A stretch of DNA of 64,000 nt from contig JAQGDQ010000878.1 in NCBI GenBank assembly GCA_030141605.1, forward strand, positions 1-64,000, written 5' to 3'. The notes beneath the pieces were generated by a model. That model searched no databases. It was given only the letters and a program-made list of their open reading frames with translations, and was not told the DNA's origin. This document shows, in pieces, positions 3,855 to 33,043 of this stretch (positions are counted from its first letter, which is position 1; every line of letters begins with the position of its first letter). The stretch comes from Tubiluchus corallicola. Its lineage: Eukaryota > Animalia > Priapulida. The position numbers were made by a program, and so were the translations under genes.

Positions 3855-4050
3855 ATGCACATTCAAACTCATCTGCTATCAATCTCTGTGCTTGTTTGTT
3901 GTATTGGTGACACAGAAAGTTTGTGCACATCAGCTAAATGTGGTCATGAAAGCGGAGGATGTTGGTGTGATGCAGCATGTTTTAGTCAAAGGGATTGTTG
4001 CAGCAATGTGTGCGACATTTGCTATGCTCATTTTCCCAGTAATTGTCCTG
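3855..4050 (+). CDS. First coding exon V1: signal peptide + somatomedin-B-like domain
   Basis: MHIQTHLLSISVLVCCIGDTES-LC...CWCDAACFSQRDCCSNVCDIC...C; CxCDxxCxxxxDCC motif; phase-1 donor G|GTATGT at 4051. Confidence 0.8.
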
Positions 4051-4663
4051 GTATGTACTACATATGTTTGCTTTATCCTGTAAACTAATTGTAACTGTGA
4101 CCGAAGCCGATTTACTATTGATGATCTATGACTTAGTTTTCCCCACATATGGAACTGGGATAGTAATCTGTGAAGTCATACTGAAAGTCTGAAATTTCCT
4201 CAAATTTTCGGTTGGTTAACACTTATCACGCCAGCCACCCACACTTCGCTCAGACGATCAGTGATGAATTCACCATTTTCAGTGTCTTAGAATGGTTTAA
4301 TGGTTTTGTTGGTGTTTAACTGTGAGCAGATCTTACAGAAACTTGGGATGCAGACTAATGGTTCCATAATAATAATAAATCGTTTATTATACCATTAATA
4401 ATATTGAAGTATTGGCTTTCAATAACTGAACGAGTTGCATTTCAACTGGTTTGTATCTCTCAGGTCAACCAAATTTAAGAGAGTCGTTAAAATAGTCCAC
4501 ATGAGCATTCATCACCATTTATACTAACAATAATTTCACTACCCGTACTGTACTGTAAATTGCAATAAAATAAAATTAAATATGCACATGCTAGTGAGAG
4601 TTCTGATGGTGGTTACTTTTTTATATATTTATTTACATGTATATATGTATGTATATATGTAAA

Positions 4664-4689
4664 TGTGTGTGTGTGTGTGTGTGTGCGTG

Positions 4690-4729
<40 letters not shown>

Positions 4730-4740
4730 CGTGCGTGCGT
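4664..4740. repeat. (GT)n/(GCGT)n microsatellite
   Basis: Directly visible. Confidence 0.97.
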
Positions 4741-5485
4741 AAATAATGGACAACTAAAAGTAGCTGAACAGAAAAAACAGAAGTCGCAAAAATTCAAGTT
4801 GGCAATCAACAAATGACGAGACCAATTTCCAAAATCTGCATCCTGGAATCATGTGGTGATGGTTGACACATCACGAGGGGGAGGATGGACAAAAGAAAAT
4901 CATTTTTAAGTATTTTAAATATAAGTTTATGTTGTATATTTATCCTAATGTCATCATACTTTTTTAGTTTTGGATAGTGCTGCCACCTTCAGGTGTTCTT
5001 GTTAAAATTGTTGAACTTTCTCTTTCCTGTTTAAATTTTCATTGGCTTCTACAGTCTTTATGAATGCATAATCTCTAAACCTGTTTTCACACCTAAATGA
5101 TTTCACTTGTAGTTCTGGTCACTTGGTTTTCTGCTTTTCAACATGACACGACTTCACTGTTTATGTAGGCATTTCAGAATAAAATCTTAAAAACAAATCT
5201 CAAGTTTTTTGGTTTCTTCAAACCATACCTCCATTCAGGTAAAAGTCCTTCCACTCTCACTTATTGCAACATAGATTTTATAATCAATAATCATGCAGTG
5301 AATAACTTTGCAGGAATGGGTTTCTTAGAACAAAAGCGGTTGTCTTGGCTCATTTTATTGAGTAGATACCATTTGTCCTGAAGCCCTTTGACTTAATTGA
5401 TTAGTAGTTCATGGTCAACTAACGACGTGGCATTAAGTTATGTTTCACCATACATGTATTTTAAATGTCATAAACAGCATAAGTA

Positions 5486-5968
5486 CCGTATTTTCCCGTG
5501 TATAAGAGACCCTTTTTTGCTCAGAATTTTCACTTTAAAAATAGGGGGTCTCTTATACATGGGAGTAAGTCTTTTCAATAAGATGCATAAATTGTGACAC
5601 TAATGATTTTAAAGAAATAAGTGCTCTACAACTGTTTTATTTCGAATAATTATAGTTTCCTTTCAATAAATCTTCTCCATGGCTAAATTCTAATGATAAA
5701 ATTAATGTACCGGGTAAGTTATTATTTTTTTAAATGTCAAAAGAGGACAATGCCATTTTTGAGCAGAGTGACTCCTCTGATGATGAACTGGCTGGAATTG
5801 CTGAAGGTCTGACTCCAGTTGATATTTTTGATGAGAGTGACGAGGAATTTAATGATTTCTATGATGAATAAAGTTATTCATTACCAAAAAACTTTTTTCC
5901 AGAATTTTTGTCTAAAAATTGAAGGGGTCTCTTATACACAAGGGTCTCTTATACATGGGAAAATACGG
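5486..5968. mobile_element. pogo/Tc1-mariner-type MITE
   Basis: TIR CCGTATTTTCCCGTGTATAAGAGACCC / GGGTCTCTTATACATGGGAAAATACGG flanked by TA; internal acidic reading (SDSSDDEL...FDESDEEFNDFYDE*) resembles a pogo transposase C-terminal tail. Confidence 0.85.
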
Positions 5969-6490
5969 TACCCCTTGCATTAACTTATTAACCCATTTCA
6001 TTGAAATTTCACCTTAAAGGAAAGGACAAGTCACTTAGTATGTTGAGTTTATTTTACAACCTTCACTAAAATTTGGAAAAATATCATATCATAAATAAAT
6101 TTGCAAAAACCTGTCTATAAAACACAAAGTTAATTTATACTACCACTGTATAGAAACTCTAATAAACTGCACTAGCCGCTGTTCACTTGAAAATTACGAT
6201 GTAAATAGTTAACTGGAGTTTTCGTAAACACATCATGGCTTTCAATAAGCATGCACTGCCTTAAATTTCAGCAGCTTGCCCAATTTTAATGCAGAAATAT
6301 CACAGAATTAATTAGCTATCTAATTTTTTGTAAAAAGCTTATTAAACCTTTCACAGAAATTGACAGTGAACTGCTTTTGTTCAGCGACGAATGATGTCAT
6401 CGTTGGAAGAGTGGGCAAGCAAAATGGAAACTCCTAAGCGTAAAATGATCACAACATTAAAGTTATTTTACTAATTATATGAGGCATTAA

Positions 6491-30000: not shown

Positions 30001-30799
30001 CTCTGTTTTGCCAGATATAAATGAGTGTGATACTAACACAGATAGTTGCCATGCAGATGCCACATGTACGAACACAGTAAGCAGCTTTACATGTGCATGC
30101 AATACTGGATACGAGGGAACAGGTGTAACTTGCACAGGTATTTTAATTGTTTATTTTTACATATTCATCTAGCGTCCTTACAAAAAATATGATAGAAAAT
30201 ATGTATATATCTGAAGGGCAACCAGCTGAGCATAATGATGTTACAGTTTGCTGAGCTTCATGTCTGCAAAGCATGTTGCTGCATTGAATTCCTTCTAGTA
30301 ATTTACAATGACAAAATAAATAATATTTCTCTGTTTTGCCAGATATAAATGAGTGTGATACTAACACAGATAGTTGCCATGCAGATGCCACATGTACGAA
30401 CACAGTAAGCAGCTTTACATGTGCATGCAATACTGGATACGAGGGAACAGGTGTAATTTGCACAGGTATTTTAATTGTGTTTATTTTTACATATTCATCT
30501 AGCGTCCTTACAAAAAATATGATAGAAAATATGTATATATCTGAAAGGCAACCAGCTGAGCATAATGATGTCGCAGTTTGCTGAGCTTCATATCTGCAAA
30601 GCATGTTGCTGCATTGAATTATTTCCAGTAATTTACAATGACAAAATTAATCATTATTATTTCTTTGTTTTGTCAGATATAAATGAGTGTGTTACTAACA
30701 CAGATAGTTGCCACGCAGATGCCACATGTACGAATAAAGTAAGCAGCTTTACATGTGCATGCAATACTGGATATGAGGGAACAGGTGTAACTTGCACAG
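27039..30799 (+). CDS. Tandem array 2: 12 EGF_CA exons (123 nt, phase 1-1) in ~328-334 bp units
   Basis: Exon starts 27039, 27367, 27697, 28031, 28363, 28693, 29025, 29353, 29687, 30015, 30343, 30677; same unit as array 1. Confidence 0.9.
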
Positions 30800-31456
30800 G
30801 TATTTTAATTGTTTACTTTTACATATCCGTCTAGTGTCCTTACAGGTGTTTTTTAAACTAAAAAATCAAATTAAGCAAAATGTAACATTTTCCCCTCATC
30901 CTGCTTTCAGGGCTGTTATTTAGGAAGTATTTCTCTTACTCACGCAAATGACACACTTCAGTTATGATTCTGATTATAATAAATGAGTCAGCAGAAGCAA
31001 GCAGAAGCTCTCAAACAGGCACACCAATGTGGAGTTTAACTAAAACTAAGAACAAAAAAATGACGTATCTTGTAGTTCGTGTTCAGCTTAGATGCATCTG
31101 CAAGTACGTGTGGTATTATAGGGTATTTTGGGTCTACCACATGCAGTCTTCAATGTATTTTATTTTTAAAAATTTAAAATCTTTGCAGCCTTTTGTGTCA
31201 TGAGTTGTAGTTGATAAAAACAAAAAGTCTTTTCTTTAAATAATCATGATAATACTATATTAGAATGAAATTCTAAAACTGCATAAAAACTGCTGCATAG
31301 CCCTTCAACATAAAGGTACTTGCACATGAAAAAGTGATCACAGCGAGTTTCAGTCTGAATGTAAAAGGTATGTTCTATAGAAAAATTACATACAGATGCC
31401 AGCACGGAATTATGCCTCCAGTGTTAATAATTTGAAATTCAACAATTATATTTTAG

Positions 31457-31579
31457 ACATAGATGAATGTGGCAACGAAGTAGATAACTGCCACAGTGAC
31501 GCCACCTGTACAAACATCTTCGGCAGCTTCACCTGTGAGTGCAACCTTGGTTATGCGGGAGAGGGTGTAATTTGTTCAG
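31457..31579 (+). CDS. Divergent EGF_CA exon (phase 1-1)
   Basis: AG|DIDECGNEVDNCHSDATCTNIFGSFTCECNLGYAGEGVICSG|GTAAT. Confidence 0.88.
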
Positions 31580-31946
31580 GTAATACTGCCTAGTAAAGTT
31601 TTTCTGTGTTGAGATTCAACATTTCAAAAATATATCTGTCATCTGGGAACATTCCACTGATTGTCTCATCTCTGATCAATTAGCAGCCACATTAATGAAA
31701 CACCAATTAGCAGCCACACTAATGTTTTTGCCTAAGCAAACCCCATTTCGAATCCCATTGTCATTTTTATTTTGTTATTGTTACTGTTGTTGGTGCTGTC
31801 ATTGTTGCTGATAATGTTGCACCATATACACCATTGTTCTTGAGCTTGGATTAGGTATGTCACTTGCAGATTCAATGGAATAAGTAAAACAAGGACAAGC
31901 TCTCGCGAACAGCTAACCTAATAGCGGTCAAGTCAGCCTTCATTAA

Positions 31947-32384
31947 CCCTTTCATACCCGTTGTATCCCGTGGGATACGAGAATATTTTCTGCCTTTAAA
32001 ATTAATAAAATTTTAAAACTGACAGTTATTTGATCTGTTAATAATTATTTTGATTTAAGCCAATAACAATAGACTAAAACTGGTGATAAAATGGCAAACT
32101 AGAAAATCTACATAGCATAAAAAACTGCGCAAGGTACAGTACTTTAGAGATGACTTTGTACAGATCAGCATAGCGTGCATACTAAATGTCTTAAATACTT
32201 TAAAAAATTATCAGCAGTTGCAAAATGAAGCACATTTTTTGCTTTTGTTGTGTTTTTAAAAAGTCGGACTTTGTTTTTTTGCACATGACAAAGAATGTTG
32301 CGTATCCCACAGGATACATTGGGAACAAAAGTACCAAGCCAAAAAATTGTTTCTTATTAAAAAAATAATTTGGGAGTGAACGGG
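31947..32384. mobile_element. piggyBac-type MITE
   Basis: TTAA|CCCTTTCATACCC ... GGGAGTGAACGGG|TTAA; internal inverted repeat TGTATCCCGTGGGATACG / CGTATCCCACAGGATACA. Confidence 0.8.
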
Positions 32385-32917
32385 TTAAGAAAGACTGACT
32401 ATTGAGATTGGTTACATTACAGGACCAGTATTACTACTTGTGCAGATATCTCTGTGCTGGTAGAAAAACGTACCATCGTAGAATATTTGGGCCGATGTAG
32501 TCACAGAAGTAAAGTTTCTAAATAAAAAAACGAGAATTGCTAGTATACGAACTATTCCATGCTGTATTAATTTCTAATTGCGTAGATGAATTTACGTTTC
32601 TTCAAATGGAATAACAAGAACGTCTGTGTGTGGCCAGACATAATTAAAATATCTCGTACATTTTTTGCAAGAAAATGCTTCTGCGCATAGAGTCGATGCT
32701 TAAGCATAGACATTTGTTAGTGTTTAATTAAAAAAAGATTAAAATTTTCACTGTTTTGTCATCACAAGTGGATGTTTCAGATTTGCATGACAGATGAACA
32801 AAAACTGCCAGTTCCAGTATTCAACAGTATTCAACCAGTTTCAATGACACAACAAACAGCCAATGAAATTAAATTTAACAAGAAACCGACGTACAAAATT
32901 TTCACTCATTTTTCCAG

Positions 32918-33043
32918 ATGTAGACGAATGTGGTACAAATATGGATAACTGTGCAGAACTAACAGCAACATGTGATAACTTTCCTGGAAGTTTCAGCTGT
33001 ACTTGCATACAGCATTACTACGGAGACGGCATAGTGTGCGAAC
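32918..33043 (+). CDS. Divergent EGF_CA exon (126 nt, phase 1-1); last recognisable exon of the SMB-EGF locus
   Basis: [51 protein letters not shown]. Confidence 0.88.

Follow-up and report, generated by a model that had tools for sequence, protein, structure and literature searches.

Anatomy of the locus

The stretch of DNA analysed here, called the window throughout, comprises 64,000 nucleotides from the priapulid Tubiluchus corallicola (GenBank assembly GCA_030141605.1, contig JAQGDQ010000878.1, positions 1 to 64,000 of the forward strand). It contains five paralogous start exons (V1 to V5), 39 EGF exons and one terminal exon encoding a PAN domain. We lean slightly towards reading these exons as one gene with alternative promoters, which would give rise to secreted proteins composed of a tip, a stalk of up to 39, 15, 15 or 14 EGFs and a PAN end. 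The reading is carried by the exon anatomy, the compatibility of the phases, the single recognisable terminal exon and the purifying selection on the V exons; use of the common PAN exon by the upstream units would be the simplest account of this arrangement.

The V exons lie in tandem on the same strand, four of them intact and one decayed. V1 (3855..4050, +) encodes a signal peptide and an SMB-like domain with 10 Cys, and V3 (18055..18262, +), V4 (23281..23485, +) and V5 (26605..26851, +) are first coding exons of the same layout: an ATG, a hydrophobic leader (best 10-residue Kyte-Doolittle value 2.2-3.6), 10 invariant Cys and a CTG/GTA donor, which is in phase 1 in 4/4 cases. The predicted coding lengths are divisible by 3. 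No EGF exon belongs to V3, which is the closest paralogue of V4 (63% protein identity), while V5 features the longest loop between the second and third Cys (C2-C3) and lies nearest to the 3' exons. In the decayed V2 (~15590..15805, +), an ACG is aligned with the ATG of the others, the third Cys is replaced and a frameshift places the two halves in different frames. DNA and protein profiles detected no further or decayed V exon on either strand of the window. The final base of every V exon is a G that, joined to the next AT, restores the first Asp of the calcium site; because G is also the splice consensus, this does not discriminate between the readings.

Could the V exons be something other than start exons? 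In one long gene, the SMB domains might be internal, placed between runs of EGFs, or the V exons might be mutually exclusive second exons following one non-coding exon, and plausible acceptors indeed lie 33-164 bases 5' of the ATG in V1, V3 and V5. However, each intact V exon has kept its own ATG and hydrophobic leader, and 0/8 candidate acceptors near the V exons combine phase 1 with an open V frame. The V exons hence cannot serve as internal coding exons, although a shared exon of the 5' untranslated region (UTR) is still allowed. We give this alternative hardly any credence.

The EGF exons are distributed unevenly: V1 is followed by 24 of them, V4 by a single one and V5 by 12+1+1, and there are none directly behind V2 or V3. 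All 39 are flanked by AG and GT, open and in phase 1-1, and all 39 translations contain six Cys and the motifs D-x-D/N-E and C-x-N-x4-F. Array A (6738..14335, +) consists of 24 calcium-binding EGF exons in units of exon plus intron of ~330 bp, and array B (27039..30799, +) of 12 calcium-binding EGF exons from the same unit family, all 36 array exons being 123 nt long. The remaining three are E25 (24139..24261, +), a lone, divergent calcium-binding EGF exon 3' of V4; E38 (31457..31579, +), a unique exon; and E39 (32918..33043, +), the last EGF exon and likewise unique, with 126 nt and an AAC/GTAAGT donor. The cut-off of 27 for EGF_CA (PF07645) was passed by 3/3 exons scanned (34-46 bits; first exon of array A, 46.3). 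A pattern scan recovered 38/39 EGF exons, to which the exon at 24139 was added from open reading frames and profiles; profiles of DNA and protein revealed no extra EGF exon on the plus or the minus strand of the window, be it complete or decayed. As all EGF exons are symmetric, skipping of any of them would shorten the stalk without a frameshift. The array also carries a CxxxxTC motif, which we take to be of the O-fucose type. Directly before array A, positions 6487-6737 correspond to a first unit whose EGF exon is deleted, and the last intron of the array is cut by unrelated DNA (14407..15082, +) with a frame of 110 residues that resembles a remnant of ORF1 from a long interspersed nuclear element (LINE), without Pfam support.

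The terminal coding exon (33591..33829, +) has a phase-1 acceptor, encodes a PAN/apple domain and ends in a TAG stop, with an AATAAA at 33932. It scores 33.9 bits for PAN_1 (PF00024) against a cut-off of 21.4, contains four Cys only, and has PAN_1 as its Atlas neighbours at 0.95. Searches with tblastn and blastn gave no second copy in the window. Among the plus-strand frames of at least 38 residues between and after the units, it is the only one of 102 to reach a Pfam cut-off; the other 101 are without a Pfam family. Just 3' of its stop, a 313-bp tandem duplication (33877-34514, 92%) doubles the AATAAA (33932, 34258).

These exons agree well with the initial annotation, which had described the five paralogous exons with their leaders and Cys framework and one of them (V2) decayed, quoted the four C2-C3 loops, matched the phase-1 donors of the intact V exons to every EGF exon, noted that V3 is not followed by an EGF exon before V4 and counted stalks of 39, 15 and 14 EGFs; re-reading and recounting reproduced each point. 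Its exon set is right up to 33043, where it stopped, and missed the terminal PAN exon 547 bases further 3'.

A hint that E39 is spliced to the PAN exon comes from a 153-letter contig of the sequencing run X1, whose kind was guessed as RNA. The match begins exactly at 33591 and has 15 differences in 130 letters (88%). The 23 loose letters of the contig match the last 23 of E39 at 18/23, their best place in the window; the next best place reaches 15/23 and the intron before PAN 4/23. Towards the end of E39, 4/5 differences are at third positions, and 4/8 listed differences in the PAN part are silent. The contig thus looks like the spliced E39-PAN product of an allele, a related lineage or a paralogue, graded as a hint only because its short side of 23 letters falls below the 31-letter bar of the tool. 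Matches of the run to 7/30 bins of 22500-40000 lie outside V4, V5, the EGF arrays and endophilin and are uninformative on expression.

Age of the start exons and of the EGF arrays

The V exons and the stalk they precede appear to run on different clocks. Synonymous sites among the V exons are near saturation (dS at least 1), and the ratio of nonsynonymous to synonymous differences per site (pN/pS) is 0.42-0.57 in 6/6 pairs. For dN/dS, a comparison of the V exons that had been proposed in the initial annotation, the 4/6 pairs with computable dS gave 0.21-0.39, indicative of purifying selection; no positive selection was seen among the V exons, in a test weakened by the saturation. From these substitution patterns, we read the four V exons as old paralogues under purifying selection. 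The EGF units, by contrast, are 90-100% alike. Between arrays A and B the likeness is 90-93%, with distances of 0.073 for exons and 0.096 for introns; within array A the intron distance is 0.067, so the array is young. The idea of a rapidly turning-over family, one of two possibilities initially offered, consequently applies to the EGF units and fails for the V exons.

Within array A, A02-A03 resemble A21-A22 (7066-7518/13246-13698) and A08-A10 resemble A16-A18 (9024-9805/11597-12377), higher-order duplications that are a sign of unequal crossing-over. Arrays A and B begin at the same point of the unit even though their flanks are unrelated, indicating that a copy of the unit passed from one cassette to another at a time when V1 and V5 had long been separate. 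Since some units are 99-100% alike (A10/A18), it could be argued that a misjoin or mis-counted repeats in the assembly have in part shaped the layout or the lengths of the arrays. Yet there are variants and higher-order duplications that distinguish the units; the DNA where one unit joins the next is unique and lies outside the shared repeat; and the V exons differ more than haplotype copies would. This makes an artefact very improbable.

The DNA around V3 and V4 adds to the picture. Three non-coding blocks 5' of V3 (16760..17393, +) are collinear with blocks 5' of V4 (22680-22963), at identities of 70% over 104 nt, 85% over 26 nt and 86% over 28 nt, and non-coding blocks common to the two exons reach 1.3 kb upstream and 200 bases downstream. 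This supports a duplication of V3 and V4 together with their upstream DNA, as would be expected of whole 5' cassettes, and marks the upstream blocks as candidate regulatory DNA. A TTAGTT is found 5' of 4/5 V exons, a motif noticed after the fact. No CTCF-like match was found within 600 bases 5' of any V ATG at 2 mismatches, in a scan that is uninformative. Beyond a transposon-like pair (24819/25317), no inverted repeats that could pair the cassettes were found between the units.

One gene or several

Are the upstream units, which have no PAN exon of their own, in use? In a rough model, the half-life of an unused V exon corresponds to ~1.2% neutral divergence, and V2 is an example of such decay. 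In array A, 0/23 exon variants touch 14 structural codons or create a stop (P 0.0003-0.0008); for Cys and stops only, P is 0.02-0.045. Indels are likewise confined to the introns, with 7 there and 0 in exons (P 0.04). The purifying selection on the V exons and the spared residues of array A imply that selection acted on array A and on V1, V3 and V4 up to a very recent time, and by these signs the upstream units look alive.

In one alternative, the unit of V5, 14 EGFs and PAN is the sole live gene. V3, the pair of V1 and array A, and the pair of V4 and E25 would then be 5' halves of what used to be tandem paralogues, orphaned a short while ago, or else incomplete copies of genes located elsewhere; they might act as donors for gene conversion. 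The dead V2, the missing EGF exon of V3 and the abrupt end of array A would fit, as would the likeness of arrays A and B despite the saturated V1/V5 pair, which signifies exchange or copying between units, and the 88% contig, which may mark a full paralogue elsewhere. However, given the short half-life of an unused V exon, three separate and very recent losses would be required, within ~1-2% divergence and each sparing the next V exon; furthermore, upstream there is no relic of E38, E39 or PAN, and no stretch between any two V exons is alike enough for recent conversion. We consider this explanation rather improbable.

Alternatively, the units could be separate genes in tandem, in which V1, V3 and V4 are each completed by a private 3' exon, short or unrelated, or by intronic read-through and polyadenylation, giving secreted SMB or SMB-EGF proteins without PAN. 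An AATAAA follows each of these units (15479, 18739, 24328), and intronic read-through meets a stop after 5-45 residues. But AATAAA is frequent in DNA of 35% GC and also occurs in sure introns, with 8 in the first intron of V1, and the tails that read-through would add show no conservation, not even from V3 to V4; one such tail after V3, which resembled a glycosylphosphatidylinositol (GPI) signal, was rejected for lack of conservation in V4. Canonical phase-1 donors are moreover kept in all units, and apart from the PAN exon no scanned frame matched a Pfam family. Separate genes thus seem unlikely, if a little less so than orphaned copies.

Against the one-gene reading itself, the following has to be held. 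The 14 structural codons of array A were picked after the variant table had been seen, and the test on Cys and stops is cleaner but weaker; in addition, the selection seen on array A could predate a loss of 3' exons, and the array breaks off mid-intron against unrelated DNA at 14407, as it would after a deletion of those exons. Sharing of 10-mers upstream exceeds that of shuffles in 1/10 V pairs (V3/V4), with no motif common to all. Short or unrelated terminal exons would fall below the scan floors of 25-38 residues and so escape detection. The X1 contig covers the E39-PAN junction only and reaches no V exon, and at 88% it may stem from another allele, lineage or locus; if it came from a second locus, full-length paralogues with a PAN exon of their own would exist elsewhere, favouring orphaned copies. 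The functional steps of the mechanism proposed below are taken from domain analogy only. Finally, there is a precedent in Hydractinia: according to the accessible part of the source, RNA showed that Alr30, supposed to be a partial duplicate of Alr2, is a separate gene whose 3' exons are its own and unrelated (PMC9546547).

Weighing all of this, we retain the one-gene reading. The alternative promoters already considered in the initial annotation gain from the single terminal exon, from selection on the V exons and the upstream EGF array and from the cassette-like duplication of V3 and V4; the promoters themselves and the splicing of V to the 3' exons are what we infer. Each V exon would be transcribed from a promoter of its own. 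A transcript starting at an upstream V exon would pass over every V exon further 3', none of which offers an acceptor in phase 1 and in frame, and would take up the EGF exons on its way, so that the choice of promoter would also set the maximum length of the stalk. The predicted maxima for V1, V3, V4 and V5 are 39, 15, 15 and 14 EGFs in proteins of 1744, 764, 763 and 736 amino acids. Tandem calcium-binding EGFs form stiff spacers, and calcium would stiffen the stalk in the same way here. The PAN end would hold the protein in the extracellular matrix or on a surface, while the acidic tip, whose C2-C3 loop differs by isoform, might bind a different partner in each tissue or stage.

The predicted protein and its relatives

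The predicted product has the order signal peptide, SMB-like domain, EGF repeats and PAN, with other domains not found in Pfam scans. None of 21 phase-1 frames between the units is membrane-like, and control regions gave none either. The V domain contains the eight-Cys spacing C-x4-C-xn-C-x-C-x3-C-x5-CC-x6-C of PF01033 and aligns Cys for Cys with the SMB domain of ENPP1 (PDB 2ys0; E 2.5), having two extra Cys. The Pfam gathering score of 23.1 was reached by 0/4 V exons (V5 18.0, V4 16.5 and V3 10.2 bits; V1 no match), and we refer to the domain as SMB-like, probably a 10-Cys variant. Structure models of the V domain and of the PAN exon were too poor for a fold search, with predicted local distance difference test (pLDDT) values of 48 and 43.

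A V profile retrieved 51 proteins among 1.84 billion representatives, and 43/50 matches scanned contain PF01033. Across both searches, 21/53 matches show the extra CC-x3-C-x2-C layout and 0/53 contain EGF or PAN. The carriers that could be named are microbial. By title, 8/13 genome loci belong to Myxococcota; among metagenome loci, 9/11 show the 10-Cys layout and 9/11 are gene-dense; and one protein comes from a marine protist transcriptome set. Extracellular proteins of Myxococcota and Phycisphaerales type (L001-L024; P0128, P0130, P0162, P0163, P0165) carry a 10-Cys SMB-like repeat, CxCDxxCFxxxDCCxxxCxxC...C, with the same layout of the extra Cys as the V domain, which here occurs as a single N-terminal copy; one microbial repeat matches V5 at 20/37 residues, the final FPxNC included. 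Because the patterns of these microbial scans were drawn from the query and animal genomes lay outside them, a horizontal origin of this Cys-rich domain of 35-45 residues, though conceivable, is a lead only. Protein searches found no protein with the combination of SMB-like, EGF and PAN domains, and word-indexed searches gave 3 matches among 38 candidates for V and 0/4 for PAN, which are weak negatives. Such a locus or architecture was not found in the literature searched, which covers few subscription papers and no supplements; the accessible text of PMC10280001, supplements aside, does not mention EGF, caspase or PAN domains.

By analogy with proteins of similar parts, the product may be secreted and act as a tether with two ends, its tips being adapted to particular tissues or stages. 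Its most likely role would be to cross-link or tether an apical matrix, a pre-cuticle or mucus. The second candidate is a soluble opsonin in immunity, for which the neighbouring caspase and STING-domain genes are no evidence. Without a membrane anchor, with only four tips, and these old and under purifying selection, a cell-identity code like that of protocadherins is unlikely. The comparison with recognition or adhesion molecules drawn at first is weakened accordingly, as no transmembrane segment and no positive selection were seen and four tips are intact.

The neighbouring genes lie further 3'. Endophilin A (38408-39586, +) has its whole coding sequence in one exon, with an acceptor at ~38401 and a possible 5' UTR exon ending at ~36850, and may be a retrogene. 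It shares 65% identity with the endophilin of Priapulus caudatus, the runner-up of the 120 listed matches being at 60%. In a tree of 21 rows, all selected from these matches and none of them a kinorhynch or loriciferan, the two endophilins pair at 100/99, which makes the host probably a priapulid and at least a scalidophoran. A fusion of the EGF exons to endophilin was considered and rejected, the endophilin acceptor being out of frame for a phase-1 donor. A multi-exon caspase gene (~51600-61700, +) contains three copies of an interspersed element of ~500 bp in its introns (52743-53242, 55641-56086, 60863-61363) and is followed by a frame with a STING ligand-binding domain (62908-63594, +; E 7e-10); the two could belong to a single gene or simply lie next to each other. 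On the minus strand, small exons are possible by eye in the interval from endophilin to the caspase (40050-45370), near 45310-45360, 41745-41760 and 40090-40125. Satellites occupy 19607-21390, between V3 and V4 (105 bp x 17), and 43991-45126 (76 bp x 15). At the other end of the window, an open frame of 393 residues (2-1180, -) with an N-terminal Cys-rich finger resembles a LINE ORF1 protein; in Pfam it matches only DUF7685 (E 0.004).

How does the locus compare with known systems of variable first exons? As far as the accessible part of PMC1885805 describes them, vertebrate UGT1 and GCNT2 share with it tandem paralogous first exons that encode a signal peptide and a variable N-terminal domain in the same phase, pseudogene relics among these exons, one set of 3' exons, whose common use is predicted here, and birth-and-death turnover. 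They differ in encoding enzymes with an anchor in the endoplasmic reticulum, in having their promoters and splicing demonstrated, where ours are predicted, and in that the same source describes no exons between their variable exons, where here there are EGF exons. The sDscam alpha and beta genes of chelicerates are the invertebrate counterpart, with tandem multi-exon 5' cassettes and promoters, again predicted here, upstream of common exons; splicing across cassettes alters their domain number (PMC4835542, in part). Unlike the locus described here, they encode Ig/FNIII membrane receptors with many cassettes, whereas here the domains are SMB-like, EGF and PAN, a membrane segment is missing, the intact tips number four and 330-bp repeats of exon and intron have amplified the stalk. 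Clustered protocadherins join variable first exons to constant 3' exons, as predicted here (partial views in PMC4835542 and PMC1885805). Their variable exon contains the whole ectodomain of cadherin domains and a membrane segment, and their constant part is cytoplasmic, none of which applies here: in Pfam scans of the window frames, cadherin or Ig/FNIII domains and a transmembrane segment were not found, SMB-like, EGF and PAN only. To judge from its domains and exons, the locus resembles UGT1, GCNT2, protocadherins and sDscam in organisation, and its proteins belong to none of these families. Hydractinia Alr2/Alr30, as far as PMC9546547 is accessible, offers a further likeness, in that partial-looking duplicates lie upstream of a full gene; it serves as the model for the reading as separate genes.

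As for the protein, LET-653 (PAN-ZP) is another secreted ecdysozoan protein that uses PAN modules, by which it is anchored in the luminal matrix of nematodes (PMC4970718, accessible part); its ZP domain was not found here. The fibrillin-related FBN-1 of nematodes is likewise a secreted ecdysozoan protein with calcium-binding EGFs, built round other domains that were not found here. We know of no SMB tip or variable first exons in LET-653 or FBN-1. Tentatively, and with confidence falling just short of even, we suggest that scalidophorans evolved independently, from other parts and for a secreted protein, a locus with variable first exons in the style of protocadherins and sDscam, in which promoter choice would determine how far the EGF stalk reaches as well as which tip is used. 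The tip would be a 10-Cys SMB variant that our searches otherwise met only in microbial proteins and that may have been acquired horizontally, and the 330-bp repeats would tune stalk length on a much faster clock.

The locus is more complete than first described and is probably a novel form within a known type of gene organisation, with a domain set and a secreted product that the searches of proteins and papers did not turn up. Should the rival explanations hold, the locus would amount to nothing unusual, a family of secreted, EGF-rich genes in tandem or in decay. If the one-gene reading is confirmed by RNA, a poorly studied ecdysozoan lineage would join the few animals known to combine variable first exons in tandem with constant exons, and the identity of the tip would be coupled to the length of the stalk through the position of the promoter. 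With five start exons, one of them dead, the locus would be small enough to suit the study of promoter choice and first-exon skipping.

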